Virus record (IMG/VR): IMGVR_UViG_3300017963_000074 | Span: 1 to 51,624 of that record | Reading direction: 5' to 3' (one strand) | Length of the DNA stretch: 51,624 nucleotides | From: a virus | Taxonomy: Duplodnaviria > Caudoviricetes | Shown here: in pieces, positions 4,956-22,311 of the stretch | Layout: every line of letters starts with the position of its first letter | Position numbering within the stretch: the first letter of the stretch is position 1 | The notes under the pieces: model-generated | Databases searched by the model: none | The model's input: the letters and a program-made list of their open reading frames with translations, nothing else | Told to the model about the DNA's origin: nothing | Position numbers and translations under genes: made by a program

Positions 4956-6901
4956 TGTAGACCTCCTATTGGTACAAGATTACCTTTCCTCTCCTCCTCC
5001 TGCACTGTCTCCTCCGGCAATACCCGTGTATTCACGTCCCTCCTCACAAAGTCGTTTACATTCCTGGCACCTAGCTGCCTTGTGAGATGTTTGAACACCC
5101 TTACAATATCGAAGTTCTGGCTTATAACTGGATGGGAGGCCAGGATCTCAAATACCTTCGCCCACGCTTGACCATCGGAGCTGCCAGGGATACTCCCATC
5201 GTGAGGCATGACATCTACATCGATATCTATATCCTTTGGGCTAACCTTCACCCTGGTCTGGTCAGTTCCGTATTCTGCAAATAGTTCCTCACTCAGTCTA
5301 CCTATCATATTCACATAAACCTCTTCACTCATCAACTGCTTTGTATGAGCTGCGAATAGATAGGCCAGATCAAAGTGACTCTGGATACTACTCAGTCTGG
5401 CATATTTCTCCAAGCGGGATAGGGCAGAAGAGTGTACCTGCTGTGCCTCAGTTGCACTCACCCTCTCAGATGTCCTTCTCCTTATCCCCTTCAGCTGATC
5501 CACTGCCCCAGTTACCTCCTCACTCAGTTGCTTTATGAAGGATATATCAGGGATATTCTGTGCAGTTATGTCAGTAATGGCCAGCTGTTGCACTGCCTCC
5601 TTCACACCTCTTCCCCAGGCTGCCCTTCTCATTCTCACAAGCTTCCCTGGTTCTGGAGTTTTCAGGTCGTTGTAGTTCACAAGGTAAGGATCAACAATAA
5701 GCATATCGTTGATGGCCTTCCTCACATTAGCCACATGTGTCCTATACAACCAGTCAGCTGTCCCCTGCAACCCATGCATCACCTCCAGGACACCGATTGG
5801 GACTATCGAGTGGCCATCATAGTTAGGACAGTCCACAGCAAGCGGGAACCTGTTGTGATCCAACCCAGTTGGCTGGGCAGCTATCAGAACAGCATCTCCA
5901 GCCAGTGCAAAGTACCACTTCTCAGGATAGTCCCCATCCCCTAATCCCCACTCGCTGGGAACCAGGTTGACATACATGTGAAGAACATCGACAATGTTCC
6001 CTGTCTCTCTCGGAGTATCATCTGTCCATCCGGTCTTATCCCACCTACCTGTCTCGGTAGCTGTCCGGAAGTTCTTCGATCTGTTATCTCCACTATGTAC
6101 CAGATATCTTACATTGAACAGGATACTATCAACATCATTCTCATCCGAGAGAAGGGTTATCCTATTCGTCCTATCCATCCAACCCTGATACTCACTCCTC
6201 TGTATATTCTCCAGAGAGGTATTAGGATCTGGAAGATAATTATAGGGATCAATATTATAAAGGATATTCCCTTCGTACAAAGTTTTCATCTCCCTATTCT
6301 GGACTGTCCTACCAGGGATGAATCTATTAAACACCTCAGACACAAACCCTGTATTCTTCTCAACCGTCTTGAATCCCTTCACCTTCTCCCAGTCCGCTGC
6401 TACAACTCCAAAGCCATAGGCAAGTGCATCTCTCCACATTGTATGGAGATTCAAGGCAGTTTTCATTCTCCTCACCTGGAGCTCGATATTCCTCTCCAGA
6501 AGAATGGCCCCTATTGTATCCTCTGGCCCAGTGCCTTCATATCTGAAGATAGGATCCTCGAGAAAGGCAGCTACCTGGTAGGTTAGGAGAGTTTCCATTG
6601 TAGCATAAGTGATAGGGACAACTATAGTAACAGGTCTCCTCGGATCCTGGCTCTTGATCTCCTTCTCCTCATCGTCCAGATCTATGTAGGCTGTAAGGGT
6701 TCTGTCCATCTCCTGCCATGCACCTACCCTACACTCCATAGCACTATAGCTGTCCTGTGCCATTTTGAGGAGCCTGTCCCTGATATTGTTGTGAATCTCT
6801 GAGCCAGGTTTGAGATTCATACCGGCCGGATAGTTATAATCATAGTCAGCTTCTTTACCTATCTGATCAGAGTTTTTCTTGCCTTCTGATTGGAAGTTCA
6901 T
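4952..6901 (-). CDS. Portal protein
   Basis: 649 aa; DALAYGFGVV, NIDPYNYLPDP and EEVTGA...SATEAQ motifs typical of P22/T7-type portals; upstream of the scaffold gene. Confidence 0.85.
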   Translation of the reverse strand: MNFQSEGKKNSDQIGKEADYDYNYPAGMNLKPGSEIHNNIRDRLLKMAQDSYSAMECRVGAWQEMDRTLTAYIDLDDEEKEIKSQDPRRPVTIVVPITYATMETLLTYQVAAFLEDPIFRYEGTGPEDTIGAILLERNIELQVRRMKTALNLHTMWRDALAYGFGVVAADWEKVKGFKTVEKNTGFVSEVFNRFIPGRTVQNREMKTLYEGNILYNIDPYNYLPDPNTSLENIQRSEYQGWMDRTNRITLLSDENDVDSILFNVRYLVHSGDNRSKNFRTATETGRWDKTGWTDDTPRETGNIVDVLHMYVNLVPSEWGLGDGDYPEKWYFALAGDAVLIAAQPTGLDHNRFPLAVDCPNYDGHSIVPIGVLEVMHGLQGTADWLYRTHVANVRKAINDMLIVDPYLVNYNDLKTPEPGKLVRMRRAAWGRGVKEAVQQLAITDITAQNIPDISFIKQLSEEVTGAVDQLKGIRRRTSERVSATEAQQVHSSALSRLEKYARLSSIQSHFDLAYLFAAHTKQLMSEEVYVNMIGRLSEELFAEYGTDQTRVKVSPKDIDIDVDVMPHDGSIPGSSDGQAWAKVFEILASHPVISQNFDIVRVFKHLTRQLGARNVNDFVRRDVNTRVLPEETVQEEERKGNLVPIGGLQ

Positions 6902-9900
6902 CGTTCCTCCAATAGCTTACCTATCATACTGTAGAAAGCTCTCTTCTTCAAGTGGTAGTATTCGAATTGCTGTGTATCCGTATTCCAGAACATCATTACT
7001 TCCTGACTGGCTTCTACCTCTGGAACCCATCTGTGTATTACATCCCTCCTGGTTTCAGGACTATATGAAACAAAGGAAGGATCGACACTGCTAGCTGTAA
7101 GCTTCCCAGTACATCTGATAGTCCCATTTACATCGAGAGTGTACGATGGAGTAGCGTCGTTAATACCTACCCTCGTATTCACCTTATCAACATACAGCAG
7201 ACCGGCAGACAGACTCATATTATTATTAGATCCATCTATCAAAATAGAGTTCGTCATAGCCCCACCATCATTTATCCTAATATAAATATCCTTATCCTGA
7301 TCCTTCTGATCCACATAAAAGTCTGCAGCAGGGCTCTTATCATGAAAATAACTTCCGCCATGAGTAATAGTATTTCCACTGAGATCGAGTAATCCAAGAT
7401 TATTGTAACCTATATTAACAGAATCCGCCTCCTGATTTATCCCATATCTTGTTAGTGAACAGCTACTCTCTGTAATCCTATCAGAAGTCCCGTTGCCATC
7501 CAGATAATTGTTAGCAGAAAACACTCTATCACAATTGGTAAGATATAGTCCATACCTCCCATTGCTCACCAAATAGTTTCCTACAACAAAAGCATCATCA
7601 CAATAATCAAGAACTATTCCATCAGTTGTACCTGTATTATTGTATATCTTGTTTCCTATAAAACTAGAATAAGCTATTTCATTCCCGCTTGACCCATTGA
7701 AGTAAATAGCGTGTCCTGTGTTGTCGTAGATGACATTCCCCTCTATATGGTGATTGTCCTCACCTGTAGCACAATATATCCCTCCCTCCTCATTACTATA
7801 AATAACATTATCTACAATTGTAACAGCTTTTGCACTATCGTCTATGACAATACCATAGTTGAGACTTGCAGAAGTAAGATTTTTACAGTTATATATCTCA
7901 CAGTTGCTAATAGTAACATTTCTAGAACTACCTATTCTGATTCCTCTGTTGCAGTTGTATATCATACAGTTGTCAATAACAATGTTTTCTATTCTACAAG
8001 TAGAGCCATTTTCATAGATGTGAATCCCATTATTGAAATCCCTGAATGTACAGTTGCTAACAAGCACCCTTCTTACCTTGGTAGTATCAGCCCCCGTTAT
8101 TAACAACCCTACATAGAGTGAGTCAGTTCCCTCAAATATACAATTACTAATCTCCACATCATAAACCTCACCAGAGGGATTCCCACCTGTAGCACCTGGA
8201 GGTTCTATAACAACCATCCCAGGACTACATGAACCGGAGAAGGTACTATTCGTTATCTTGAGCCTCCTCACATACTGATCCGCTCCGTAGTCTCCACCAG
8301 ACACAACACTTATACATGCTCTTCCTCTCAGGGGAGAAGAGTTGAATTGAATAGTTCTAAGAGTAACTCCATCTATAAGAACATCCCTTGATCCAACTAT
8401 ATTAATCTGATCTCCAGCCGCACTATCAACTCTAACATCTCTTACTGTGACAGTATCAGAATTGAGTATCTTTATTCCATGATCGGACTGGTCGTAGTTA
8501 GCATTATCAGCTCCACCTCCATCAATAGTACCGCCTCCATATATAAGGACATTCTCCACACTACTCAAAGAAATGACTGACTTATTTGTAGCCGCGCTCT
8601 TTGTATTTCTTAATTCAGTCCCTCTTGGAATGAATAGAGCTGTATTGGAAGCCGGGATGTGTTCTGTCTGTGTTGTAGCATATTCTGTATCAGGCTCCAA
8701 CCTAATCTCGCCTGCTACAGCTGCTCCTCCTCCATCTTTTATAGCTGCATCAACTGTTGTATATCCTTCCACATACCTCACTCCGTTTAAGTCAGCTAAG
8801 TCAACTATATTATTGCTATTAAAATCCATATCTGCATTAGTTACATCTATCTGCCCACCGGAATCAAATAGTAACATCTCCCCATCAACTATACCAACCC
8901 CCTGTCCATCATCTATATGAAGCTTGTCAGCTGATATACCTCCATTGGAAATAGAAAGAGTATCCATATTAACTATACCGTTACTCTGCATATCCAGGTC
9001 AGCATACATATATATCTTATCAATCATCCCCTCTGTCCAGTCCATTATTTCCAAGCCACCAACAAATAACTCAACATGGTCACCTTGCAATCGAAAATAA
9101 GTATCCAAATCTCCATCATGATAGATATATTCTGCAAAGTTTGCAGTTCCTGATACTATAAGATGATTATCGCTCTGGAGGGTATCAGCTTGAATCATAT
9201 GACCACCAGCATCCCACGTATTTGTAAGTGGGACAGTGCCATCGGCCATTACAGCTCCAGCCCCTGCAACAATATCAGCAGCGTGCTGGCCATCCAGGAG
9301 ATCAGCGTTGAGGTTAGTTACAAGGGTTGCACTGGCAATGGTAAAGGGAGCTGTACCTCCTGCTAATGTAGAGGTTATAACTCCAGTAGCTCTAACAGTT
9401 CCATCTACATCAAGGGTGTATGAAGGAGTAGCATCGTTCACACCAACTCTTGTATTTACTTTATCAAGATACAGTAATCCCGCAGACAGGCTCATATTAT
9501 TTGTAGCTCCGTCTACCAAGATGGAATTTGTCATAACTCCACCATCGTTTATCCTTATATAAAGATCATTATCTTGGTCATTCTGATCTATATACATATC
9601 CCCAGCATCACTCTTGCTATCAAGATCATTTATATCTGCAATAGAGTTCCCTCCCATGTTCAGATTACCACCCATTGTATCAGTACCATCCAGCTCGAGA
9701 TACTGAGTATGGTCGTCATCTGCAAGGCCATCCAGCTCCCCATGATCCGTAACACCGGCACCCAATCCTTCTATACTATCACTCACAGCATCGGGCGTAG
9801 CAATCTCACTGGTATCTACCTTTATTGTAAAGGTACTATTTGCTCCTCCATCTACAAAGTCCAGCCCATAACCGGCTGTTATCTTTCTCTCTCCTGATAA

Positions 9901-11217
9901 ACTGGCATCATAATCTACAACAATATACTGAGCATCAGCAGGAGCACCAGTTAGTCCTTCTATACTATCATTAAGAGCATTGACTGTTACAAGAATGTCA
10001 GTTGTATCACTCCATACAAAACCGGATAGATCTAGGCTGTCTATAAAGTCAGCCTTTAACATAAAATCTGTCGCATGAACTCCATCAACCATATCAGCAT
10101 TAAGGTTGGTTACCAGTGTCGTAGAGGCTATTGTAAATGGGGCGGTTCCAGTAGCTAGTGTAGAGGTAAGCGCACCTGACATACCAATAGTTGTAACACC
10201 CGTAATTCCAGCTGTATTCATGTCAAGATCTGCACCCAGTACATCTAGCTGCCCACCTGCATCGAAGGAGATCCTTTCATCAGTTTCACTTATTCCTATC
10301 CAGTCTCCACTATCTATAATAAGATCATCAGAGAGATCTATATCACCTGTTACAGATATACCTGTACTTGAGGTAGAGAGCTTTGCGAAACCTGCGTAGT
10401 TTAAGGTAGTAGCCGCAGCTGTATAGGCAGCTGCAAGTGTCTCGACCCCTACATTATTATCAACATAGAGACCAATACCCCCATTAGTGACATTATAATC
10501 AATCTTGAACATAGTTCCTGCATCGGTAAGCTCAATGTAGTCACCCAACAGTATATGTGTATCCCCTCTGACTGTGTCGGCCCTTACCATATGAGCTCCA
10601 GCATCCCAGGTATCTGTCAATGTAATAGAGCCATCCCTTAGCAGAAACTCATCATCGTTAGCAGCCAAAGAGTCGCCAAAATCATCAGCTAGCAGCCACA
10701 CAAATACACTATCCCCTATCTCATTCCTCACCCACTTTGCCGTTACCAGTACGTTATTAGTATCTGCATTATTCCAGAAGCTATCAGCAAAAGCTGCATT
10801 CAGCAACCAGTCCAGGGTAGAGTCCCCTATCTCATCCCTTATCCAGTTGATTGTAGCAAGAATATTGTTAGTATCAGCAACTGCCCAAAAGGAGTCTGCA
10901 AAGGTACTTGATATAAGAACCCCCTCTATTGTTCCAGTTACCCTCAGACCTCCCTCTATCACAACCCCATCAAACTCAAGCACCCTGAGGGTATCTATCC
11001 CCTTATCCCCTTTTATCGTAAGGGAATCCCCTGATATACATACACTCACAGTATCTGTATCTGTTCTAGTTTTCATCAGAAACAAGCAGCCGGAGTCAAC
11101 ATAGGCAACAGATACTGTAAGAGTATCTCCCTTATCCCCAAACCTCATCTTCACATTATCTGCAAAGAGGAAATAAAAGGACACAAAGATTAAGATTGCT
11201 AGTGGTACTCTTCTCAT
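6898..11217 (-). CDS. Large fibre/tailspike-like protein with beta-helix depolymerase domain and N-terminal Sec signal peptide
   Basis: 1439 aa; MRR + hydrophobic core + LFA|D; fibre motifs (VTNLNADLLDG, RVGVNDATPSYTLDV.G, DHGELDGLADDDHTQY); long parallel beta-helix in the C-terminal half. Confidence 0.75.
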   Translation of the reverse strand: MRRVPLAILIFVSFYFLFADNVKMRFGDKGDTLTVSVAYVDSGCLFLMKTRTDTDTVSVCISGDSLTIKGDKGIDTLRVLEFDGVVIEGGLRVTGTIEGVLISSTFADSFWAVADTNNILATINWIRDEIGDSTLDWLLNAAFADSFWNNADTNNVLVTAKWVRNEIGDSVFVWLLADDFGDSLAANDDEFLLRDGSITLTDTWDAGAHMVRADTVRGDTHILLGDYIELTDAGTMFKIDYNVTNGGIGLYVDNNVGVETLAAAYTAAATTLNYAGFAKLSTSSTGISVTGDIDLSDDLIIDSGDWIGISETDERISFDAGGQLDVLGADLDMNTAGITGVTTIGMSGALTSTLATGTAPFTIASTTLVTNLNADMVDGVHATDFMLKADFIDSLDLSGFVWSDTTDILVTVNALNDSIEGLTGAPADAQYIVVDYDASLSGERKITAGYGLDFVDGGANSTFTIKVDTSEIATPDAVSDSIEGLGAGVTDHGELDGLADDDHTQYLELDGTDTMGGNLNMGGNSIADINDLDSKSDAGDMYIDQNDQDNDLYIRINDGGVMTNSILVDGATNNMSLSAGLLYLDKVNTRVGVNDATPSYTLDVDGTVRATGVITSTLAGGTAPFTIASATLVTNLNADLLDGQHAADIVAGAGAVMADGTVPLTNTWDAGGHMIQADTLQSDNHLIVSGTANFAEYIYHDGDLDTYFRLQGDHVELFVGGLEIMDWTEGMIDKIYMYADLDMQSNGIVNMDTLSISNGGISADKLHIDDGQGVGIVDGEMLLFDSGGQIDVTNADMDFNSNNIVDLADLNGVRYVEGYTTVDAAIKDGGGAAVAGEIRLEPDTEYATTQTEHIPASNTALFIPRGTELRNTKSAATNKSVISLSSVENVLIYGGGTIDGGGADNANYDQSDHGIKILNSDTVTVRDVRVDSAAGDQINIVGSRDVLIDGVTLRTIQFNSSPLRGRACISVVSGGDYGADQYVRRLKITNSTFSGSCSPGMVVIEPPGATGGNPSGEVYDVEISNCIFEGTDSLYVGLLITGADTTKVRRVLVSNCTFRDFNNGIHIYENGSTCRIENIVIDNCMIYNCNRGIRIGSSRNVTISNCEIYNCKNLTSASLNYGIVIDDSAKAVTIVDNVIYSNEEGGIYCATGEDNHHIEGNVIYDNTGHAIYFNGSSGNEIAYSSFIGNKIYNNTGTTDGIVLDYCDDAFVVGNYLVSNGRYGLYLTNCDRVFSANNYLDGNGTSDRITESSCSLTRYGINQEADSVNIGYNNLGLLDLSGNTITHGGSYFHDKSPAADFYVDQKDQDKDIYIRINDGGAMTNSILIDGSNNNMSLSAGLLYVDKVNTRVGINDATPSYTLDVNGTIRCTGKLTASSVDPSFVSYSPETRRDVIHRWVPEVEASQEVMMFWNTDTQQFEYYHLKKRAFYSMIGKLLEER
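7105..7323 (-). repeat. Internal duplicated ~73-aa module, copy 2
   Basis: DFYVDQKDQDKDIYIRINDGG...TPSYTLDVNGTIRCTG matches the copy at 9382-9600. Confidence 0.85.
9382..9600 (-). repeat. Internal duplicated ~73-aa module, copy 1
   Basis: DMYIDQNDQDNDLYIRINDGG...TPSYTLDVDGTVRATG. Confidence 0.85.
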
Positions 11218-11906
11218 GGTATGCTCGCTATTACCCTCAGGAAGTTCAGCTCTTCATTGATTGTAATGTACCTCATAGAACTTGACCTCTTCAACCCTAT
11301 ATAATATATCGTATCGTCAGTTGTTCCTCTACCTATCGACACTGTCTCAACCTCATTTATCCTAACCTTAAATATCTCCCCATCATTCAGGTTCATCCTC
11401 ACATCATTTCCATCCTGGTCGAAGTCTGGCAAGAAGTCAGTCTCCCACTTCTCACTCGTTCCATTAAACCTTATAATATCTCCATCTGACCCAGCTGGGA
11501 GGCCCTGCATAATCTTAGTACCCGCAACTGCCACCCAATACCCACTATCTCCTGCAACAACATAAGGTACATTAGCAGCGCTCGCTGAAGCATCCCAGCA
11601 ATATATAGTATATTCATTAGGATCAGCAACTTCGTAAGCGACCAGCATACCTCCCTCAACAGCTGTCGATAGACTAGCAAGCTCTGTCGAGGGGTCGTCG
11701 ATGTCAGTAACCTGGACAACAGAGATATACGCTCCGAGATCCTGTAACCTGACAACATGATCGTCAACAGTTGGAGCCGTCCCGACAAGGATCTGTCCTT
11801 CAAACCTTGCTCCATGAAGGCTGAGAGCTGCATCGTCTTGGTAGACATCAGTGTCATAATATAGATAAGGCCCTTCCGAACCTAGCCAGTATTGCTTCAA
11901 AGCCAT
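11214..11906 (-). CDS. Putative virion protein (fibre adaptor candidate)
   Basis: 230 aa acidic beta-rich ORF with fibre-like APTVDDHVVRLQDL and GDIIRFNG motifs; coupled to terL and to the 1439-aa gene; no signal peptide. Confidence 0.5.
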   Translation of the reverse strand: MALKQYWLGSEGPYLYYDTDVYQDDAALSLHGARFEGQILVGTAPTVDDHVVRLQDLGAYISVVQVTDIDDPSTELASLSTAVEGGMLVAYEVADPNEYTIYCWDASASAANVPYVVAGDSGYWVAVAGTKIMQGLPAGSDGDIIRFNGTSEKWETDFLPDFDQDGNDVRMNLNDGEIFKVRINEVETVSIGRGTTDDTIYYIGLKRSSSMRYITINEELNFLRVIASIP

Positions 11907-13492: not shown

Positions 13493-13631
13493 TCTTTTGG
13501 CTCCTTACTACTATCGCCTCAAGCTTTCTTATCCTATCCTCCAGATTACCTATAACCTTCTGGAGGGTCTTGATCTCTTCCCTTCTTTCATCCAGAATCA
13601 TCTTTAGGAATATTGCAGAGTTCTCATCCAT
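13467..13631 (-). CDS. 54-aa coiled-coil protein (below the ORF-track cutoff)
   Basis: Manual translation MDENSAIFLKMILDERREEIKTLQKVIGNLEDRIRKLEAIVVRSQKSGTSSGKS; TAATG coupling to the 898-aa gene; fills the gap before terL. Confidence 0.65.
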   Translation of the reverse strand: MDENSAIFLKMILDERREEIKTLQKVIGNLEDRIRKLEAIVVRSQKSGTSSGKS

Positions 13632-16327
13632 TACCACACTCCTGCTGTATCAGACGCTGAATAAAACGGGACGTAACAAGTATCCTCTCCAGTTGTGAAG
13701 TATATCCTCAGCCACTTTCTACTACCACTCATAAGGGTATCAACAAGTGCAACCCTATGCCAGGCCCCTCCATTCATCTTCCCTTCCAGCATCCCGCTGT
13801 TCATCCTGATTCCATATCCACCTGATCCCATAGAGGTATGGCAGACATCAGTTGTATCATTGGAGAAGTTTATATACCCATCCTCCCTGAGCATCAGTCC
13901 TGTTTTATAAAGGGCCATTCTTTGATCTGTTGTATTGTAATTCTTAGCATGCTGGCCTAGAACTCTGAATAAAAAGATACTTGCCTGTGATCTATTCCTA
14001 GGATCAGCTCCCCATGTACTGAAGTTCCTCAATATAATCTGCCCACCTAACGTCGTAGGCCGCGTATCCCTATAACTAGGAAAATTAATAGAATAAAAAG
14101 AAGTAGGATAACTACCGGCATAAGTCGTATCACCTGATACACTCTCTCCGATAGTAAGGGTCTCCCCGTAAAGGTACCTCCGTATCGAAACTGAATCCTC
14201 CGATACGGTGTTGCTCCCAAATAGGATCATCATAGAGTCATTCTTAGCCCTCACCATCGTATCAACAGCTGAAGAGAAAACTGTATCAGCAGCTCCATAT
14301 AGAACAGAACAAGCATCGGAGCAGAAGAACCGGATTCGATACACTCCCAAGCTGTCCACGATTATAGAGTCAGGATATAGGCCACTTACAAGCTCGACAC
14401 TAAAACTCTTCAAATAGCTATAATCATCTCCAAATATATTATCCTCTTCATTTATGAAAGAACTGTTTGCATCGTAATAAGGCTCATCATTGACTAGATT
14501 AAAAAATCTATTACCTGATACAAATACTGTATCACAGTTCTCCATATATAGAGGATATCTAGTCGTCGAGCCAGTTTCCGAAGCATATATTGTACATCCA
14601 GTTATATGTACATTATCTGCATTGGTTATCCAGATAGCATCATAACCAGGATCTTCCCTCATAGAACAGGGATCCTTTATAATACAGTCCTCTATCCAGA
14701 TATGAGAACCAGCAGCTATATATATCGCCCTTTGTGGAGGGCTATCGAATATACAGTCTCTAAATACTACATTATTTGTCGTGCCAGATAGACCTATATA
14801 AGGTTTAGTAGAATCAGCAAGACCGCTGAAAGTACATCCTTCAAATACTACATTATTAACATTAGCTCCATATAATTGGTTGTTACAGCTATCAAATACA
14901 ACATCCTTTATTCTTATATTCTTTGCTAGATCCGCACCAAACACAAGTGACATAGGATACGAAGCTATATTTTTTATAACAACATTCTCAATAAGAATGT
15001 TCTCAAAAGTAGCCTGAGAGTTTTCTATTGCTATCCCTCTATAACCTCCCCATATAACTCCATTTGATATAGTCACATCTTTGATGAGAGTAGGCCCAGC
15101 TCCAGTCGGCTCTATATCTATTCCACCTGGAAGGCCACCGACAATAGAGAAGTTACTGATATTCACTCTCTTAAGACATCCAGAGGGATTGACAGTAGTA
15201 TCAAACAGATCACAGTCAGGATATGAAGAACCCTCTCTCTGGATCACAAGAGATATACCCTGCCTACCAACAAGATTGGATACAGTTGAGTCCGTACTTG
15301 TGGTATACCAATGAAAGGGGTTATACAGAAAAACATTAGATATAGTATAGTCGCTTCCACCTACCATACAGATACAATCACCAGCAAAGTCATGCATATA
15401 CACATCTGTTATATTCACCTTATGGCACTCGTGCATATGTATACCTGTATGGGCTTGAGTAGAGGGAGTTATCCTATAATCGCTTGTAGCATCCGGATTG
15501 GCATACCAGTTACTACTAAGGGTCAATTGAGTATTTCCAGCAGCTGTAGCTGCATTGTCAGAAACTGTCCTACTATGTCCTGTACTTGTTCCAGCTGTTA
15601 TATGGATAACATAACCTATAAGAGAATCAGCTACAACAGAAAGGCCATCAACTGTAACTGTGTTATTGGTCGCTGAGACAACATTACCAGTTACATAGTT
15701 GGAATCTGCCCAGCCATAGTACTCACCACCCTGTAAGGTAATATTGGTATCTGCATAGGACTTATACAATCCATAGGTACAACCCCCTCTTACATTCTGT
15801 CTTTTGTATGTAACCTTATGGCTAGAAGGAAGGACAATATGACTGCCAGATGTAAGATAGATAGTGGTATCCTGCAAAGTCTCATGCAAACCGGATTCCC
15901 CTACAACAGTCCCAGTAACGGGGGCACTTCCACTATCATAAACAGCATCCATGAGACTAGCGTAGTATCTCGAGAACCTTACCCCTAACCTCTTCTTAAT
16001 CTCACTTCCCTCGACATACTTTCCAGTTGCAGCTGACCAATCTGTTCTCCTGGCAATCGAACTCCCACCAAGGGGATCTTCCCATAGAGTATAAAAGCCA
16101 GAGTTGGTCACATCAAACTCGTGCATTGTGAGGGTGCTATTATAACTCCCCACAAGGCTGTCCCCTTCTGTAACTGTCCCATCTATTCCCTTTAATACAG
16201 CTGTACTCCCCGAATCAGTCATTCTGATTCTATATGGAGTAGAGGCTTCTGTCTTGAATACATTGCAGATGAGTAGGATACTCAAGACCAAGAGAACTGG
16301 AACTGAAATTAATAGAAACCTTTTCAT
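13631..16327 (-). CDS. Tailspike-like beta-helix protein with N-terminal Sec signal peptide
   Basis: 898 aa; MKR + long hydrophobic core + TEA|S; GRQGISL, GIDIEP and repeated (V/I)xFxxCxF beta-helix rungs. Confidence 0.75.
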   Translation of the reverse strand: MKRFLLISVPVLLVLSILLICNVFKTEASTPYRIRMTDSGSTAVLKGIDGTVTEGDSLVGSYNSTLTMHEFDVTNSGFYTLWEDPLGGSSIARRTDWSAATGKYVEGSEIKKRLGVRFSRYYASLMDAVYDSGSAPVTGTVVGESGLHETLQDTTIYLTSGSHIVLPSSHKVTYKRQNVRGGCTYGLYKSYADTNITLQGGEYYGWADSNYVTGNVVSATNNTVTVDGLSVVADSLIGYVIHITAGTSTGHSRTVSDNAATAAGNTQLTLSSNWYANPDATSDYRITPSTQAHTGIHMHECHKVNITDVYMHDFAGDCICMVGGSDYTISNVFLYNPFHWYTTSTDSTVSNLVGRQGISLVIQREGSSYPDCDLFDTTVNPSGCLKRVNISNFSIVGGLPGGIDIEPTGAGPTLIKDVTISNGVIWGGYRGIAIENSQATFENILIENVVIKNIASYPMSLVFGADLAKNIRIKDVVFDSCNNQLYGANVNNVVFEGCTFSGLADSTKPYIGLSGTTNNVVFRDCIFDSPPQRAIYIAAGSHIWIEDCIIKDPCSMREDPGYDAIWITNADNVHITGCTIYASETGSTTRYPLYMENCDTVFVSGNRFFNLVNDEPYYDANSSFINEEDNIFGDDYSYLKSFSVELVSGLYPDSIIVDSLGVYRIRFFCSDACSVLYGAADTVFSSAVDTMVRAKNDSMMILFGSNTVSEDSVSIRRYLYGETLTIGESVSGDTTYAGSYPTSFYSINFPSYRDTRPTTLGGQIILRNFSTWGADPRNRSQASIFLFRVLGQHAKNYNTTDQRMALYKTGLMLREDGYINFSNDTTDVCHTSMGSGGYGIRMNSGMLEGKMNGGAWHRVALVDTLMSGSRKWLRIYFTTGEDTCYVPFYSASDTAGVW

Positions 16328-16336: not shown

Positions 16337-16555
16337 CTACCTATCAATATCATCGTCATATTCGTAAGCTGCATCAGAAGGAACAGGACGGGGTGTACCT
16401 TCCACCCTGATCAATCCTCCTCCATTCCTACACAGAGCGGGATCGTCGTCATCCCCTGCGTAATCCTCAGAGAGATCTACTATTTTATAGGAATAGTTTT
16501 CTGCAATCTCTGTGATACTTTTCCTATTATCACTTGTTCTTGGCCTCTCAGCCAT
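16337..16555 (-). CDS. Hypothetical acidic protein
   Basis: 72 aa, TAATG-coupled within the late operon. Confidence 0.55.
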   Translation of the reverse strand: MAERPRTSDNRKSITEIAENYSYKIVDLSEDYAGDDDDPALCRNGGGLIRVEGTPRPVPSDAAYEYDDDIDR

Positions 16556-16914
16556 TAGATTGTTACCTCCTTATTCAAAGTGACATTCCCTTCCATGATG
16601 CAATAGACATCATCCCCATCAACCAGCTCCAGATCATACACAGCCCTGTTGAAGGATAAAGCAGCTGTTGCAGCCGCTGTTACAGCTATCCTTATCAATC
16701 CCAGCGATCCGTTGACAATTGTAATCTCAGTATCAGTATCCCATTCTGCCAACGCTGACCCACCATCACCCTTGAAGTTCCTGATCTTCATTCGGGCTGT
16801 ATAACCAGTTATGTTGACCGGGGTAGTCCCATCATCCTGCATCCATTGTATCAAGCGGGAGAAGTTACTCCCTTCCTTTATCACGAAATCATGTTTAGCT
16901 GGCAGCATCGCCAC
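16555..16914 (-). CDS. Ig-like virion protein (BppU N-terminal-like)
   Basis: PVNITGYTARMKIR...GLIRI...AVYDLEL...EGNVTLNKEVT is the pattern of small phage Ig-fold fibre-anchor proteins. Confidence 0.65.
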   Translation of the reverse strand: MAMLPAKHDFVIKEGSNFSRLIQWMQDDGTTPVNITGYTARMKIRNFKGDGGSALAEWDTDTEITIVNGSLGLIRIAVTAAATAALSFNRAVYDLELVDGDDVYCIMEGNVTLNKEVTI

Positions 16915-16923
16915 ACCTCACAT

Positions 16924-16938: not shown

Positions 16939-16941
16939 TCG

Positions 16942-17232
16942 TCACTTCTTTCCGTTCATAGCCCTGAGCTCTATATGTATCTGATCCAATTTATCCCAGA
17001 GCTTATTCTGACTCTTCTCCACTCTGACAAGCTGATTCCCAAGCTGGGCAGTCAAAACATTACACATCTCCTTATCCTGCTTCTTTTCCATATCAGCCTT
17101 TGTCACTCCATTCTTCTTAGGAAGAATCTTAGCCAACAATGCACTAGCCATGACAAGAAACCCTCCTATAGCAGCCCCGTCTCCAATAGAAAGCATCACA
17201 TCTCCCCTCTCAGAAGAATAGTTTCCTTCCAA
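16942..17232 (-). CDS. Single-TM coiled-coil protein (holin/lysis-cassette candidate)
   Basis: Hydrophobic segment GAAIGGFLVMASALLA followed by a coiled coil; the true start may be ~12 codons downstream. Confidence 0.5.
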   Translation of the reverse strand: MEGNYSSERGDVMLSIGDGAAIGGFLVMASALLAKILPKKNGVTKADMEKKQDKEMCNVLTAQLGNQLVRVEKSQNKLWDKLDQIHIELRAMNGKK

Positions 17233-17479
17233 CTACATATCCTACTCCTCCACAAACAAAGACAGATAGATGGGTTCCCAACTCTCCCCATAAACTCCAG
17301 GATTCCAAGAACCTACCTGCACTCCACATACAGACCGCTCCCAACACCAGAGGCCACCACTGAAGGAAATGGGCTTTCCAGCTACTATGCACCATCATCA
17401 TATACTGACTGAGGTAATATGCAAAACCTATACCTCCCACGAACATCCCTCCTAGAAGGATCAAAAATAGACTTGTCAT
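17210..17479 (-). CDS. Small 3-TM membrane protein (holin candidate)
   Basis: Three hydrophobic segments; start moved to ATG at 17479 (MTSLF) behind TAAGGAG. Confidence 0.5.
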   Translation of the reverse strand: MTSLFLILLGGMFVGGIGFAYYLSQYMMMVHSSWKAHFLQWWPLVLGAVCMWSAGRFLESWSLWGELGTHLSVFVCGGVGYVVGRKLFF

Positions 17480-17495
17480 GATATGTCTCCTTAGC

Positions 17496-17556
17496 GCCCG
17501 CCAGTTAACCTCCAATAATCCTGGCGGGCTGTTGGAAGGAGGGAGGATCCTTCCTT
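17496..17556 (-). other. Two tandem stem-loops in an intergenic region
   Basis: GCCCGCCAG/CTGGCGGGC (17496-17529) and GGAAGGA/TCCTTCC (~17534-17555). Confidence 0.5.
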
Positions 17557-17560
17557 TTGT

Positions 17561-17854: not shown

Positions 17855-17869
17855 CTTATTCCTCCTTCC

Positions 17870-18196
17870 TTACGGTTCAACTTCCCCAATCTGCCCCTCT
17901 TTTGGAGAGTAGTTATATTTCTCCAAGTACATGAGCAGCTTGGCAGCTTTCTCTGTGTCCCGATCTCCTATATTATAAGACACAACTTTGTTGGTGGGAG
18001 ATACAAACTCGACCTTCTCTCCAGGCCTCACCTCATACTTCTTCATCATCTCTCCAGCTTTGTTTTGATGCCAAACCTCTATCCGCTTGATAACCTTCAT
18101 AGTCCGGAAGATCTTGATATAACGGCCTTCCAGCTTGAGATGTTGGCCAAACAAAGCGGCGGGGATGAGAAGAGTTGCTATAAGAAGAGCTCTCAT
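17870..18196 (-). CDS. Small exported protein (Sec signal peptide)
   Basis: Start moved to 18196: MRALLIATLLIPAALFG|QHLK; ATGA-coupled to the methyltransferase stop. Confidence 0.65.
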   Translation of the reverse strand: MRALLIATLLIPAALFGQHLKLEGRYIKIFRTMKVIKRIEVWHQNKAGEMMKKYEVRPGEKVEFVSPTNKVVSYNIGDRDTEKAAKLLMYLEKYNYSPKEGQIGEVEP

Positions 18197-18870
18197 CTTA
18201 CTTTCCTCGCGATAAGAACATCGTTGCATAACTCCCGGCCTGCATATTCATCGGGAGTTACTTTGTACTCTACAACCCTGAACTTGTATCTTTTCAAGAC
18301 CTTTATCCAGACATCTAAAGGCCGGTACTTTTTATAGGCAAATGGTCTACTATGAGACATACTCAAGAGAGTGTCAAACTTACTTGTGATAAAAAGATAA
18401 CCTCCATCATCAATCAAGGCAGAGCAGTTCTCAATAGCATTGCGGAACCTTTCATCATCTACGATGTGGTGTAGGACATTCATGGCGGAGATTATAGAAA
18501 ACGGGCCTCTAGGCAAGAGAGCCTGGATACTGCTATCATCTGCAACATCACATAAAACAGCATCAATACCCTTCTCTCTAACGTACATCACCGAGGAGGC
18601 GGCTATATCAACTGCAAGAGGAAAACAACCCATCCTTTCAAAGAACACAGCCCAGAAGCCCGCTCCAGTCCCTACATCGAGAACTTTATCTCCCTCCTTC
18701 ACATAAGGATGAATGACACTAGCTATCCTCTCGTAATGAATCTTTGCAAGCTCTGGATTTAAGGAAACTGAAAGCTCAGTCTCCCTAGTCTCATCAATCT
18801 CACTCCAATACTCTTCCCAAAAGATGGGAGGATTGTAGAGTTGAAGAATTGTCAGAGCTAGAAAGATCAT
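18193..18870 (-). CDS. Class I SAM-dependent methyltransferase
   Basis: KVLDVGTGAG motif I, AVDIA, CDV, NVLHHI and GGYLFIT motifs. Confidence 0.85.
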   Translation of the reverse strand: MIFLALTILQLYNPPIFWEEYWSEIDETRETELSVSLNPELAKIHYERIASVIHPYVKEGDKVLDVGTGAGFWAVFFERMGCFPLAVDIAASSVMYVREKGIDAVLCDVADDSSIQALLPRGPFSIISAMNVLHHIVDDERFRNAIENCSALIDDGGYLFITSKFDTLLSMSHSRPFAYKKYRPLDVWIKVLKRYKFRVVEYKVTPDEYAGRELCNDVLIARKVR

Positions 18871-19121
18871 CGTGTTGAATCCTCCGGAGCTTGTTGTGGA
18901 GGTTTAGGGGGATCGAATCTGAGACCTATACTATTCAGATCATTGTAGTTGATCTGTCTGGCCCTGCTGAAGTATCGCTCCAACTGCACTTTCATCACCA
19001 TCAGCTGTTCCCTCTCCACAAACATCTGCTCGATCCTTTTGGCCTTCAAGCTCCCCCCAATGAGGAAACTCAGGGCCATTGCGAGTACCAGGATAACAAC
19101 ATCTTTCCAATTCTCTTTCAT
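18867..19121 (-). CDS. Single-TM membrane protein (inner-spanin-like topology)
   Basis: N-terminal TM, helical region and Pro-rich tail ending EDSTR. Confidence 0.55.
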   Translation of the reverse strand: MKENWKDVVILVLAMALSFLIGGSLKAKRIEQMFVEREQLMVMKVQLERYFSRARQINYNDLNSIGLRFDPPKPPQQAPEDSTR

Positions 19122-19405
19122 GACTCCCTCCTTCCAAAGAGTTTATCGAAGAGTTTGTTTAGGATTTGTACCCACTTGTATCTGTACAGGAGTTTCCCAT
19201 ACAACTTATGAAGCAGGCTTTTGTACTCAGAGTTGTAGTAGACTCCTATCATATGCTGCACAGTATCGTCCAGAAACAGGATGGCTCCAATGGCTAGCAG
19301 GCCTATCGCAAGGTGCTGATCCAACCAAATGGCGAGGAAACCGGTCAGCAGGATGAACAGCCCAAGGTAGCCGTGATGGAAGCCTCTTTGAGAGTGGTTA
19401 CTCAT
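19118..19405 (-). CDS. Small 2-TM membrane protein with HH..DD..H residues
   Basis: GFHHGYLGL...LFLDDTVQH; 95 aa, ATGA-coupled. Confidence 0.6.
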   Translation of the reverse strand: MSNHSQRGFHHGYLGLFILLTGFLAIWLDQHLAIGLLAIGAILFLDDTVQHMIGVYYNSEYKSLLHKLYGKLLYRYKWVQILNKLFDKLFGRRES

Positions 19406-21930
19406 GGATTCGCGTCCGGTGATAGGATCTGGAAATTGGTTCCGTCATAAATCAAGTGGACATATGAACCCGCTTCGATGTAATTGTCCTGCGGGTCCTG
19501 GTCGTGCAGAGACTTCAATGACTTAGCGCCCAACGCGTTAATTTGTAGGGTACACGCACCCGTGTTCGCTACACCAGCATTGAGATAGATCACCATCCCA
19601 GTTGTGTAGGCGGTGATGTGATCGGAGACGAAGCCATAATCATCGTCCACCGAAGACGTATCCGCAAAAAAGTTCGGGCCGCTTGCATTGACGATGAGAG
19701 AGTCGCCATCACCAGGGACGCCGACAATAGCCACCCCCGGCCCGTCATCGTTGGGGTCGAGGATGATGTCATGGTCGGCGGCGGAAGTATAGATGGTAAG
19801 GTTAGATGCACCGGAACCCTCAATGATATTGTCAACGTGGAATACACCTGCGCTGTCCACCGACACATATTCCCCTGCTGTACCGGTGTCGCCGATGCGG
19901 ACTTCGCCGTCTGCGCCTGAAGAATTATCTCGAATGTCTAAATTCCAACTTTTTGTACCATTTGAACCTGTATATAAAGATGAGCTTGACGTTCCAAATA
20001 CAATGTAAGGGTTACTTTTCGAGGTATAATAAAGTTCTCCTGCGGTTGTTATATACATAGAGTTGGTATTAATAGCCGCATCAAAACTATACCCACCACT
20101 GGCATTTTGGAACACCGCTACATCGCCCGTGGTCATGGTCTGCTCCCAAGCATCCCCGTCACTGCCCTTGAACGCAATCACCGGCAACGAGTCAGCTCCT
20201 ATGTATTGGAGTATCGCGGCGCTGTCTATTGAGGCCCAGGTGCCGTAGTCTGAGTCCCAAGTGATAGCCTGTCTTGCACTTGAAGATGCAGCAGGGCCGC
20301 CGAGCCAGAGTTCGTCTGAGGCGAAGATTTTTTTGGGGCGCTGCGTTTTTGCGCCAAGATCATCAGCGTCATCATTTGTTGGTCCGAAAAGTGCGCTGCT
20401 CATATACCATTGTAAACTGCCGTTGACATCAAGCGACACACCGCTTACACCATCCAGATTGAGATAACCCGCCGACGCTGTAATTACCCCATTCCCTGAC
20501 TGCTCCAACGTCAGCGTGTTCCCTTCGGCACTTCCAAGCACAATAGTGCCATCAGAGTCTGCTGCTGCGACATACATCTTGACAAATCCACTATCAATAT
20601 TGGCCTCGGCACCACCTAAATCAGAGTCAATGGTTGTCACCAAATATGGCGTCTTGCTCTTCCCCCCTATCTGGAGGGAGTCGGCAAGGAAAAGGTTGGT
20701 CCACCTTCGGTCAAAATTTCCCAAAGTTTGACCACCATCATCTGAAATCGGTTGCGCTGTGTCATAAAACTCAATCTGACCATTTGTCCCCGCATTAAAG
20801 ACAATATCCCCTGTACTGGTCTGGATTGATCCACTGCTACCGTTATGCTGCCAAAATATACTTTTACCGTTCGCTGCATAAAGCGTAATTCGAGGATGTT
20901 CATCAATAAAATCGCCTGTTATTGCTGAAGAGTCAATATCCCCGAATGCGGCGTGTGTGGTCTCGTTGTCTGTGTCGTAGATGGCGAAATGAGTTGTATC
21001 ACTTGCGATGGATAACGAGGCGTAGGGCGTCGCTGTCCCTATACCGACCAAATCATTAGCCAAATCCCCGTAAATCGTATTGCCGATATTCAGTTGCGAG
21101 TTCCCTGTGGCGCTCTCAGCGTCTATGTCATATCCGATCATTATATTGAGGTCACCTGTGGTTATGTTATCTCCGGCATTGGAGCCGAGGAAGATGTTGC
21201 CATAACCCTCTGTATTCGCATAACCTGCTGAATCGCCCGCGGCTATCCCTTCGTAACCCGTGGTGTTGGAGTAGAGCGCCCCATAGCCCTGTGCGATGTT
21301 GTGGTAGCCTGTGGTGTTGGAAAATAGTGTCTTATACCCAATTCCTACATTATAGCTGGCGTGCAGTGTATTTGTTGCCGTGGAACCCATTGTGAAATTA
21401 CCGGCGGAATCACCGATGAAAATATTAAATCCATCTGGTACCGCCGTATTGCCGGTCGGGTGATGGTAGTCATGAATCCACCGACTCGCACCTTTGTAGA
21501 TCACGCCTTTGTCGTTTGAAGTGGTAGATTCCAATTCTATGTCACCGATCAAGTCCAATTCTTGGCTCGGACTCGCCGTACCGATGCCCACCTTATCGTC
21601 ACTCGTAACAACAAAGGCATGGTTCGCTCCTCCTACATGAAGCGAATCCAGAACATATAGAGAGTCAACTGTTATAGACGCCATAAAGGTGTCAACAACA
21701 CCTATCTGATATGTAAGGTACGAACTATCCGTCTTAAACCACATACCAGGATAGACCCTAACAGTATCTCCGTCTACATATAGAGCACTATCCCCAGTTG
21801 CTGAAAAGACAACAGTCGCGCTTCCCCCTGATACTAACTCAACCTGCCCCTGTGTCCTATTGCTAAGGAAAGCTATAGTCAATAGAAGAAGAACAGGAAC
21901 TAGAATCCTAGCAAAACCCTTCATTTTCAA
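19402..21930 (-). CDS. Tail-fibre-like protein with N-terminal Sec signal peptide
   Basis: 842 aa; MKMKGFAR + hydrophobic core + TQG|Q; KVGIGTASPSQELD motif, NTTGY.N.A.G beta-roll repeats, C-terminal YTTGM...NTGACTLQINALGAKSL...YDGTNFQI fibre domain. Confidence 0.75.
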   Translation of the reverse strand: MKMKGFARILVPVLLLLTIAFLSNRTQGQVELVSGGSATVVFSATGDSALYVDGDTVRVYPGMWFKTDSSYLTYQIGVVDTFMASITVDSLYVLDSLHVGGANHAFVVTSDDKVGIGTASPSQELDLIGDIELESTTSNDKGVIYKGASRWIHDYHHPTGNTAVPDGFNIFIGDSAGNFTMGSTATNTLHASYNVGIGYKTLFSNTTGYHNIAQGYGALYSNTTGYEGIAAGDSAGYANTEGYGNIFLGSNAGDNITTGDLNIMIGYDIDAESATGNSQLNIGNTIYGDLANDLVGIGTATPYASLSIASDTTHFAIYDTDNETTHAAFGDIDSSAITGDFIDEHPRITLYAANGKSIFWQHNGSSGSIQTSTGDIVFNAGTNGQIEFYDTAQPISDDGGQTLGNFDRRWTNLFLADSLQIGGKSKTPYLVTTIDSDLGGAEANIDSGFVKMYVAAADSDGTIVLGSAEGNTLTLEQSGNGVITASAGYLNLDGVSGVSLDVNGSLQWYMSSALFGPTNDDADDLGAKTQRPKKIFASDELWLGGPAASSSARQAITWDSDYGTWASIDSAAILQYIGADSLPVIAFKGSDGDAWEQTMTTGDVAVFQNASGGYSFDAAINTNSMYITTAGELYYTSKSNPYIVFGTSSSSLYTGSNGTKSWNLDIRDNSSGADGEVRIGDTGTAGEYVSVDSAGVFHVDNIIEGSGASNLTIYTSAADHDIILDPNDDGPGVAIVGVPGDGDSLIVNASGPNFFADTSSVDDDYGFVSDHITAYTTGMVIYLNAGVANTGACTLQINALGAKSLKSLHDQDPQDNYIEAGSYVHLIYDGTNFQILSPDANP

Positions 21931-21942
21931 CCTCCTCTTCCC

Positions 21943-22311
21943 TTAATTCTGAGCTGCCCGCTTTATTCCAGCAAGATACAGCGTTCCAGTCCCAGAGACA
22001 GCCTCTACAATCAACCTTCTGAGCTTAACCTCTGGCCCTATCTTCAAACCCATCCCGCTTTCCAGCCGGATTTGAAATCTTGTTGCAGTACTATCAGTAT
22101 CCCCAGGAGAACCAAACTGTAGAAAAATCGAACATCCTTGCGACCAGAGAGTAACCTGATCCCAGTCCCTCGGGAAGGTTGTATCCACAGCCGTAGTGGA
22201 CACAGCCAGGGAGTCTGTCCAGAGGTAGTACATCTGCTGCTGAGCCTCTGTCTCTCCCTGGAAAGCAATAAAAAAGGCGATTGCTAGAATCGCCACTATT
22301 AGGAATCTCAT
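21943..22311 (-). CDS. Small exported beta-sandwich protein (Sec signal peptide)
   Basis: MRFLIVAILAIAFFIAFQGETEA|QQQ; all-beta mature part. Confidence 0.7.
   Translation of the reverse strand: MRFLIVAILAIAFFIAFQGETEAQQQMYYLWTDSLAVSTTAVDTTFPRDWDQVTLWSQGCSIFLQFGSPGDTDSTATRFQIRLESGMGLKIGPEVKLRRLIVEAVSGTGTLYLAGIKRAAQN

Follow-up and report, generated by a model that had tools for sequence, protein, structure and literature searches.

Predicted export signals and O-glycosylation motifs on the large fibre- and spike-like proteins of an uncultured podovirus-like phage

Tailed-phage virions are held to be built in the cytoplasm from proteins without signal peptides. In the complete podovirus-like phage genome of IMG/VR record IMGVR_UViG_3300017963_000074 (51,624 nucleotides (nt), analysed in full and hereafter called the window, whose coordinates are used throughout), every large host-recognition-type protein, namely three late proteins of 1439, 898 and 842 amino acids, was found to begin with a predicted Sec-type export signal and to contain an excess of the tripeptide D-(S/T)-(A/I/L/V/M/T); large proteins with such signals were likewise predicted in several relatives. 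According to a 2025 review, over-representation of this motif among non-cytoplasmic proteins is found chiefly in Bacteroidota (in the GTDB sense) and Fibrobacterota, and the general O-glycosylation of Bacteroidota takes place in the periplasm (PMC12871550). From sequence, export of the large proteins appears highly probable and glycosylation of the exported proteins at these sequons rather probable; the best explanation of the whole, that they are exported, glycosylated appendages which join the virion, is put forward tentatively.

Signal sequences and sequon excess in the late proteins

Signal sequences were called heuristically, from a hydropathy window and the (-3,-1) rule, with cleavage sites taken from a crude rule. 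The layout of a Sec/signal peptidase I substrate (basic n-region, uncharged h-region, small residues at -3 and -1) was observed in five late proteins, all encoded on the minus strand: the 1439-amino acid protein (6898-11217; n-region charge +2, h-region of 16 residues, site LFA|D), the 898-amino acid protein (13631-16327; +2, 18 residues, TEA|S), the 842-amino acid protein (19402-21930, probably 840 amino acids from an ATG at 21924; +2, 15 residues, TQG|Q), a 122-amino acid protein (21943-22311; +1, 15 residues, best site TEA|Q) and a small protein within a 119-amino acid open reading frame (ORF; 17870-18229), whose likely start is the second ATG (108 amino acids, 17870-18196; +1, 15 residues, LFG|Q). 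No signal was flagged by the same heuristic in the portal, the large terminase subunit (TerL), the scaffold, the capsid or the other core-module proteins, while an 84-amino acid late protein and a 196-amino acid early protein (28033-28623, plus strand; no family match) resembled uncleaved signal anchors. No twin-arginine translocation (Tat) motif was identified, consecutive arginines being present only in the 1439-amino acid protein, where the n-region has 3 residues and the h-region is strongly hydrophobic (Kyte-Doolittle value 2.49). The type IX sorting domain Por_Secre_tail gave no Pfam match at E <= 0.01 in the three large proteins, so that in a diderm host they would be expected to get no further than the periplasm.

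AGGAGG-type Shine-Dalgarno (SD) sites were located 6-7 nt before the starts of the genes for the 898-, 842- (ATG at 21924) and 122-amino acid proteins, that of the last reading GAGGAGG. ATGA stop/start overlaps couple the gene for a 230-amino acid protein to that for the 1439-amino acid protein, and a methyltransferase gene to that for the 108-amino acid protein. The only nearby alternative start in the 1439-amino acid protein, Met24, has no ribosome-binding site before it, and a public protein collection gives the same start for the 898-amino acid protein and the ATG start for the 842-amino acid protein. The starts are therefore not movable downstream, and the hydrophobic N-termini must be translated. 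An earlier note on this DNA, made from its letters alone, had proposed Sec-like signals on all three large proteins, and this proposal stands, given the full n/h/c layout and starts fixed by SD sites or ATGA coupling. It had also assigned signals to several small late proteins, which was upheld for those of 122 and 108 amino acids; the remainder appear to be ordinary holin- or spanin-like lysis proteins or anchors. The proteins of 95 amino acids (19118-19405; two transmembrane segments, holin-like by inference, no family match) and of 101 and 96 amino acids (16942-17515; both with transmembrane segments and presumably holin-like or lysis-like) are most simply read as holin- or spanin-type lysis proteins, and the 84-amino acid protein (18867-19121), a likely signal-anchor protein with a charged tail, is presumably i-spanin-like. 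Among the five cleavable-type proteins, three had glutamine at +1 of a site ranked in their top three, fewer than the four of six exported proteins counted previously.

Expected sequon numbers were obtained from 1000 residue shuffles of each protein. The 1439-amino acid protein contained 21 sequons against 10.6 expected (z 3.5), the 898-amino acid protein 17 against 4.4-4.6 (z 6.2-6.5, the strongest excess) and the 842-amino acid protein 13 against 5.9 (z 3.2), while 3 were present in the 122-amino acid protein (about 0.45 expected, z about 4) and 3 in the 196-amino acid early anchor (0.6 expected, z 3.2). Sequon density in the exported-type proteins was 2.0-3.9 times the composition expectation, and 11 pooled core or cytoplasmic proteins had 20 sequons for 17.0 expected. 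Some of the sequons in the 1439-amino acid protein fall within internal repeats. Six permuted or substituted motifs, as well as D-(S/T) followed by a non-hydrophobic residue, were not enriched in the three large proteins or in the 122-amino acid protein, and the control E-(S/T)-hydrophobic was raised only in the 196-amino acid anchor (z 2.8). For the campylobacter-type N-glycosylation sequon D/E-x-N-x-S/T, neither the three large proteins nor the 122-amino acid protein showed enrichment, and it was raised only in the 196-amino acid anchor (1 against 0.1, z 2.4), while N-x-S/T was flat in all proteins tested. With the permuted controls flat, the sequon density that had been noted earlier in the three large proteins was confirmed under residue shuffling.

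In the 1439-amino acid protein, a long fibrous region is accompanied by a beta-helix (Pfam Beta_helix, E = 1.3e-20; NosD; GH28, 8.4e-7; phrog_2234 'tail spike', 2.5e-14), the 898-amino acid protein matched Beta_helix (1.2e-18), and the 842-amino acid protein matched 'virion structural' and 'tail spike' PHROGs; phrog_4636 and phrog_6002 were further matches among the three. By tblastn, the 1439- and 842-amino acid proteins contain short modules that also occur in tail fibres annotated in Synechococcus, Pelagibacter, Thermus and Achromobacter phages. Over its C-terminal ~100 residues, the 842-amino acid protein shares 62% identity with a segment of a collagen-like fibre that lacks a signal and is encoded by a viral contig (L019), which together with a weak match in a second contig (L020) was all that was found for this protein among viral contigs; the 898-amino acid protein had no match in cultured phages and none in viral contigs by peptide patterns. 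A PDB sequence search returned no match for any of the three, and an AlphaFold2 model of the whole 898-amino acid protein from a two-row alignment was unusable (mean pLDDT 37.8). The three proteins may be receptor-binding-type appendages, in which fibrous shafts carry beta-helix domains that bind or cut polysaccharide, although this assignment is a tentative one.

Occurrence in related phages and the host lineage

The nearest cultured phage was Desulfofustis phage LS06-2018-MD01 (38% portal identity), and the portal was matched by 5 of 50,697 phage records. A portal search retrieved eight IMG/VR loci in which the genes for the small terminase, TerL and the portal are closely spaced; in the window, about 9 kb are inserted between the small terminase and TerL genes and 5 kb between the TerL and portal genes. 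Apart from TerL and the small terminase-like protein, no similarity was observed between the proteins of the window's fibre region and those of the portal-defined relatives, and the 842-amino acid protein was found in none of four related records.

Two homologues of the 898-amino acid protein were identified, P0145 and P0144, each with about 40% identity over the first 400 residues. P0145, which had no match in viral contigs, has a signal-type start, its residue 21 aligning with residue 28 of the window protein, and contains 13 sequons against 6.2 expected (z 3.0). P0144 lacks both the signal and the first domain of ~60 residues and contains 6 sequons against 4.6 expected (z 0.7), so that signal and sequon excess go together in this family. 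Cysteine content, tried as a mark of periplasmic folding, was uninformative (18, 16 and 1 cysteines in the three large window proteins, 10 in P0145 and 12 in P0144). P0144 is encoded by a different kind of phage (contig L021), directly after a tape-measure-like gene, from which the 898-amino acid family appears to be a normal tail protein there. L021 also encodes, at 2-3354, a glycosyltransferase-2/methyltransferase fusion, two further class I methyltransferases and an unassigned 362-amino acid protein beside structural genes, which may constitute a cytoplasmic glycosylation module.

The metagenome contig that encodes P0145 (L023) was the closest relative found (TerL 43%, portal 44% and capsid 47% identity), and it repeats a block of the window consisting of an LtfC-like protein (44% identity), a small acidic protein, a signal-bearing fibre and TerL. 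In the window, these neighbours of the 898-amino acid protein gene are an LtfC-like beta-sandwich protein without a signal (119 amino acids, 16555-16914; Pfam PF23926, 3.1e-8; phrog_1084, 2e-29; phrog_3304 'L-shaped tail fiber protein assembly', 8.5e-11), a 72-amino acid acidic protein (16337-16555; homologue at the same position in L023, E = 5e-4) and TerL (11906-13492, by family match). Further products of L023 are a Laminin_G_3 protein with a signal and two small proteins that also bear one; the 108-amino acid exported protein of the window has a weak positional analogue there, and its 96-amino acid membrane protein shows weak likeness to an L023 protein of 82 amino acids.

Signal-type N-termini were identified by the heuristic, among the proteins listed, in four proteins of L023, two of L021, five of L001/L002 and two of L008. 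In L002, proteins of 653, 395 and 473 amino acids upstream of the small terminase gene have textbook signals, the largest being a Beta_helix protein, and the same three-protein set was found in G001, where the beta-helix gene is split (121 + 476 amino acids) across a 1,191-nt terminal repeat. G001 is labelled linear despite this repeat, and the split gene corresponds to L001 57-1487 together with the end of G001 (49463-60). L008 encodes signal-bearing proteins of 1116 and 291 amino acids, the latter with a sub-threshold polysaccharide-lyase-like match (26.8 bits, cut-off 29.9). In L001/L002 and L008, which are more distant relatives, the signals are on large beta-helix or lyase-like proteins without a marked motif excess (L002 weakly raised). 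The large proteins in the corresponding region of Desulfofustis phage, L007 and L003 have no signal and contain Laminin_G_3 domains, collagen/CBM5_12 modules or, in one case, no recognised family; the L007 fibre (944 amino acids, 2599-5433) has repeats of the collagen triple-helix type (4.7e-36) together with a chitin-binding-type module, CBM_5_12. G001 and Desulfofustis phage both encode lipoprotein spanin-like proteins. By these predictions, signal-bearing large proteins are a recurrent trait, present in the window, L023, L001/L002 and L008.

The sequon test was extended across records with a uniform pipeline, in which all ORFs of at least 100 amino acids were divided into those with a hydrophobic N-terminus and all others, and observed sequons were compared with expected ones. 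In the window the two groups gave 59/23.8 and 27/27.5 (the latter from 35 proteins), in L023 18/9.8 and 6/10.6, in L021 6/1.3 and 16/19.7, and in the cultured Bacteroides phage B40-8 5/1.5 and 43/30.9. The values were 15/10.0 and 17/14.9 in L002, 9/8.1 and 40/34.3 in G001, 5/9.3 and 22/16.5 in L008, 0/0.7 and 34/39.4 in Desulfofustis phage, and 3/3.2 and 9/6.9 in L025, a viral contig unrelated to the window. The four records with an excess are those with glutamine at a top-scoring cleavage site or with a Bacteroides host, L002 being weakly raised without a top-ranked glutamine. Exported proteins were accordingly parted from cytoplasmic ones in four of the five records with glutamine-type sites or a Bacteroides host, the exception being L025. 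Glutamine beside the site was strong in the window, L023 and L021, while in L001/L002/L008 a lower-ranked glutamine site was present in one of seven proteins; it therefore follows the same split among records as the sequon excess. As a further control, the 1897- and 610-amino acid tail proteins of B40-8 have neither a signal nor an excess (8/6.5 and 3/2.1). A membrane-anchored protein of 201 amino acids encoded next to the B40-8 endolysin gene (L018, 15801-16406) contains 5 sequons against 0.8 expected (z 5.1), and this lysis-region protein may be glycosylated. The co-occurrence of signals, sequon excess and a membrane glycosyltransferase, which the earlier note had proposed to test in related phages, was borne out in part: signal and excess coincide in L023 and in the 898-amino acid family, whereas no excess was observed in G001 or L008, and the glycosyltransferase gene was found in none of four related records.

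As evidence on the host, an SD-like motif was present before 40 of the 57 window genes (14% at random positions), compared with 36 of 51 in Desulfofustis phage and 5 of 46 in B40-8; under uniform ORF calls, L023 (7/17) and L021 (8/18) were intermediate and B40-8 gave 4/52. The Bacteroidetes promoter pattern (TTTG..TAnnTTTG) was tried and gave three matches against 0.75 expected, all within genes and none intergenic. Together with the heavy SD use, this makes a classical Bacteroidia host unlikely. High glutamine frequencies are reported beyond Bacteroidetes proper, for example 77% in Ignavibacterium album (PMC5837995), and SD use is put at 32% for Ignavibacteria, 37% for Fibrobacteria and 51% for Calditrichae (PMC10783764). 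We infer that the phage probably infects a bacterium that uses SD sites and belongs to Bacteroidota, as broadly defined in GTDB, or to a neighbouring Fibrobacteres-Chlorobi-Bacteroidetes (FCB) lineage, an assignment that reconciles the SD use with the Q-rule-like cleavage sites and the motif pattern. DNA of the region was present in sediment and seawater metagenome runs, two of the three runs being possibly its source, and no RNA run among those listed contained the region's sequence.

Virion parts or secreted proteins

If the three large proteins are virion parts, their synthesis would fall in the late phase, alongside that of the head and tail proteins, and they would be threaded as Sec precursors into the periplasm of a diderm host. 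Signal peptidase I would cleave them, leaving glutamine at the new N-terminus in three of the five exported proteins, and the general O-glycosylation of the host would decorate the D-(S/T)-hydrophobic sites; lacking a type IX C-terminal domain, the proteins would remain periplasmic. Once the holin had opened the inner membrane, they could meet particles built in the cytoplasm and dock through a conserved N-terminal domain, mixing of this kind being physically possible after holin opening and before the outer layers fail. Attachment to the virion is a tentative proposal. Consistent with it, the region occupies the slot in which related phages encode fibre-like proteins without signals, conservation extends to the LtfC-like 'tail fiber assembly' neighbour, and no other receptor-binding gene was recognised in the genome, family scans of the window's core proteins giving no further candidate. 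Residues 28-105 of the 898-amino acid protein are also its best conserved part (54% identity, compared with 35% overall), which is the usual mark of a docking domain. A fuller scheme of two-compartment maturation, combining Sec export, cyclisation of glutamine by the host, O-glycosylation and fitting after holin opening, with the phage glycosyltransferase editing the glycan or the envelope as an add-on, is more doubtful. The periplasm-routed, glycosylated appendages envisaged in the earlier note have therefore survived insofar as the signals appear real, recur in four lineages and are tied to sequons, but not with respect to a classical Bacteroidia host or a link to the glycosyltransferase.

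Several observations weigh against glycosylated virion appendages. When dipeptides were preserved in the shuffles, expectations rose to 15.6, 10.9 and 10.2 sequons for the 1439-, 898- and 842-amino acid proteins (P = 0.034, 0.004 and 0.14), the smaller excess indicating that the signal stems in large part from over-frequent Asp-Ser and Asp-Thr pairs. The adaptor-like neighbours, namely the 230-amino acid protein (11214-11906; ATGA-coupled to the 1439-amino acid protein gene) and the LtfC-like protein, have no signal and so would lie on the opposite side of the membrane until lysis. In the 842-amino acid protein only ~10-40 residues separate the signal from the shaft module, an arrangement shared with its cellular signal-bearing homologues and too tight for a virion-binding domain; homologues without a signal have hundreds of residues ahead of this module. 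Among the listed matches to this module, 65 proteins with signal-like N-termini had a sequon ratio of 1.00 and 54 without them a ratio of 1.11, from which the excess is not inherited with the module. The heavy SD use conflicts with the best-studied hosts of Bacteroidota O-glycosylation. An exported enzyme, WceF, keeps a P22-type N-terminal domain (PMC7949094), and in the full texts searched, supplementary files not being covered, no Sec signals on tailed-phage receptor-binding proteins were reported, nor O-glycosylated fibres of Bacteroidota phages or any glycan on phage proteins. For the 230-amino acid protein, a structure search of the atlas returned viral hypothetical clusters alone (query TM-score below 0.32; one 98-residue row reached 0.54 by its own length). 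We know of no tailed phage that adds periplasmic parts to its virion.

The foremost alternative, which is a real possibility, is that the proteins are exported and never become virion parts, acting instead as periplasmic tailspike-derived depolymerases, lectins or adhesins that cut or bind nascent capsule, exopolysaccharide or O-antigen; they could strip receptors, block superinfection and prevent trapping of progeny, would be released at lysis, and would leave host recognition by the particle to unannotated core tail proteins. Such enzymes acting from inside the cell, also raised as an option in the earlier note, are considered about as likely as fibres that become attached to the particle during or following lysis. 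The findings on export and on sequons fit them just as well. The 842-amino acid protein has the layout of cellular signal-bearing proteins, and a signal-like N-terminus was present in 66 of the 120 listed proteins that match its shaft (P0002, the record of the query itself, included), several of these 66 lying on contigs of bacterial-genome size; the signal also occurs on the small sub-threshold polysaccharide-lyase-like protein of L008. Precedents exist in WceF for an exported tailspike-like enzyme (PMC7949094) and in the exported Q-rule proteins reported for Porphyromonas gingivalis phages (PMC10367356). On the other hand, ~9.5 kb (18% of the genome) would then be non-virion and the phage left without a recognisable receptor-binding protein; related phages have signal-less fibre-like genes in the same slot, and the 898-amino acid family is best conserved in its N-terminal domain and keeps a conserved 'tail fiber assembly'-type neighbour.

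Comparison with known systems bears on both of these possibilities. P22-type tailspikes and tail fibres share with the window proteins a right-handed beta-helix, tail-spike PHROGs, fibre shaft modules, a late-operon position and a homologue in a tail module, but they have no signal peptide and are assembled in the cytoplasm, whereas the three window proteins have Sec-type signals and a sequon excess. Bor, Cor and T5 Llp are known exported accessory proteins of phages. WceF of Pantoea stewartii resembles the window proteins in that it is a beta-helix trimer of tailspike-like form, is made with an export signal, has an N-terminal domain of phage type and acts on surface polysaccharide; it differs in being a bacterial gene product of an exopolysaccharide cluster with a Tat signal, while the window genes have Sec-type signals and belong to the late operon of a lytic-type phage (PMC7949094). 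A WceF-like context was accordingly not observed: signal and beta-helix are present, but the genes lie in the late operon of a phage, between those for the small terminase and the portal. The 842-amino acid protein shares its shaft module and signal-then-shaft layout with cellular 'tail fiber domain-containing' proteins (Peptidase_S74, PF26696) of Bacteroidota and other bacteria, which differ in lying on contigs of bacterial-genome size and in their group sequon ratio of 1.00, and it has no Peptidase_S74 match. Lambda Lom (PMC12309495) and the P. gingivalis phage proteins (PMC10367356) are likewise encoded in or beside structural operons and use host Sec, and the latter also expose glutamine after cleavage. 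As far as the text of these sources goes, Lom-type and P. gingivalis phage proteins are small outer-membrane proteins, lipoproteins or uncharacterised, and are neither fibre or beta-helix proteins of 840-1440 amino acids nor a whole receptor-binding set. Bacteroidota general O-glycosylation has in common with the window a three-residue motif confined to proteins with signals or transmembrane segments, and Q-rule-like sites; it is described for cellular proteins (PMC12871550), and the host of the window phage, unlike classical Bacteroidia, uses SD sites heavily. Exported phage proteins and an exported tailspike-like enzyme were thus already known, whereas no receptor-binding-type set with Sec signals was reported in the full texts searched.

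It is improbable that the hydrophobic N-termini are not export signals and serve as a tether, an assembly or trimerisation helix or a propeptide in proteins assembled in the usual way in the cytoplasm, the sequon excess then being a compositional quirk. The adaptor-like neighbours without signals, the dipeptide-preserving P values and the heuristic nature of the signal call are compatible with such a role, but the full n/h/c layout with (-3,-1) sites in five window proteins and again in relatives, the shared split of glutamine sites and sequon excess among records, the flat permuted motifs in the three large proteins and the lack of excess in the signal-less P0144 argue for export, as does the B40-8 control, which behaves as export predicts. 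There is next to no chance that the signals are an artefact of wrong starts or chimeric contigs, of which no indication was found beyond the opening of the 842-amino acid ORF at a TTG two codons before the better-supported ATG, since the SD sites and ATGA coupling at the called starts, the tight gene packing, the lack of a ribosome-binding site at Met24, the starts in the protein collection, the presence of every sampled word of the stretch in two sequencing runs (both of them possibly the source) and the recurrence of the feature in independent contigs all speak against it.

Should the proteins be virion parts, the finding would be categorically new: assembly would span two compartments and phage fibres would wear host glycans, with a bearing on host range, on immune and protease evasion and on the design of phage-derived depolymerases. 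Should they be free enzymes, they would form a new class of phage-secreted, receptor-destroying proteins. The motif has accumulated in the same proteins in the subset of phages whose hosts show a Bacteroidota-type Q-rule, and the sequon-excess test combined with SD usage narrows the host lineage of uncultured phages, the present case suggesting a metagenome survey as a route to further examples.

Phage-encoded glycosyltransferase and other genome features

A protein of 402 amino acids (39578-40786, plus strand), the last large gene product of the replication block, had no Pfam match at E <= 0.01, no PHROG match, no word-based homologue and no relative among the genome contigs, while a full HMMER search returned 22 proteins at E <= 0.001, the query's own record included. 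Its AlphaFold2 model from an 18-row alignment (pLDDT 89.1, pTM 0.89) matched, at Foldseek PDB ranks 1-42, solely glycosyltransferase C (GT-C) fold enzymes or complexes containing one (ALG12, ALG9, ArnT, STT3, PglB, AglB and AftD; for example ALG12, E = 3.4e-6, TMq 0.66, and ArnT 5f15, TMq 0.66), and matches in the structure atlas had TM-scores of 0.76-0.86. An Asp-x-Asp-Glu stretch after the first transmembrane segment was read by eye in this protein and in most of its closest homologues, 18 of which showed weak Pfam links (one PMT_2, one GT87, one ALG10 and two EpsG). A GT-C enzyme had been predicted from the sequence, and at the level of the fold this was confirmed; the active site probably faces the periplasm. 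The protein shares with ArnT, ALG9/ALG12 and STT3/PglB the fold and an acidic motif in the first periplasmic loop, but is shorter than oligosaccharyltransferases, and no nearby flippase or bactoprenol transferase gene was identified. Phage GtrC-type serotype converters are a further known system for comparison.

The GT-C gene was absent from all four related records searched, two of which have signal-bearing fibres, so that the pairing of this enzyme with exported fibres proposed earlier was not borne out. L025 contains a homologue with 31% identity, and the gene therefore appears to be a recurrent phage gene and not a fixed partner of exported fibres. In L025, the GT-C homologue, a 419-amino acid multi-transmembrane protein without Pfam match and a 176-amino acid membrane protein are encoded at 7959-11077, just after the portal gene, and the last of these is enriched in sequons (3 against 0.6); L025 also has a homologue of the 101-amino acid membrane protein of the window. 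The oligosaccharyltransferase and ligase of the Bacteroidota O-glycosylation pathway are undiscovered (PMC12871550), and it is conceivable that the GT-C protein is of the type that this pathway still lacks.

A late S-adenosylmethionine (SAM) methyltransferase, also predicted earlier, was identified at 18193-18870 (225 amino acids; Pfam Methyltransf_23, 1.8e-10, also _25 and _11). It is a generic class I enzyme without a signal and nothing links it to glycans, contrary to what had been suggested; a role in glycan methylation is speculation.

Positions 1-124 of the window are repeated exactly at 51501-51624, the end of the record, which indicates a closed (circular or terminally redundant) assembly of ~51.5 kb. 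Its phage gene content includes an SU10-type portal (4952-6901, minus strand; PF23899, 1.4e-21), TerL, a DNA polymerase A with a domain of the uracil-DNA glycosylase (UDG) family, a DUF3987 protein and an M15 peptidase endolysin (110 amino acids, 47720-48052, minus strand; Peptidase_M15_4, 1.4e-11, and endolysin PHROGs), from which the host has peptidoglycan; no tRNA genes were found in the window. The late genes form a single long minus-strand operon, which runs from a sigma-70-like promoter match (TTGACA-17-TATCTT, 23003-22975; a consensus match only) through the exported-protein region to the head and tail genes. Its first gene encodes a small-terminase-like helix-turn-helix (HTH) protein of 161 amino acids (22308-22793; Pfam GerE/HTH_23), homologues of which adjoin TerL in relatives. 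The 196-amino acid early anchor may have an envelope-directed early function such as superinfection exclusion.

The DNA polymerase A (35954-38419, plus strand) consists of an N-terminal UDG-superfamily domain (2.6e-28) followed by exonuclease and polymerase domains (DNA_pol_A, 4.4e-44), and ORFs of 838-854 amino acids occupy the polymerase slot in relatives. Between the scaffold region and the capsid gene, a 328-amino acid protein (2511-3497, minus strand) has no signal, family match or homologue in relatives, the corresponding slot of L023 being filled by an unrelated ORF of 233 amino acids. Positions 24001-26000 combine a strong positive GC skew (0.36) with very small ORFs, and good terminator-like hairpins (23886-23908 and 25426-25456) and a TTGACA-17-TATATT match (25541-25569) were observed for this region.

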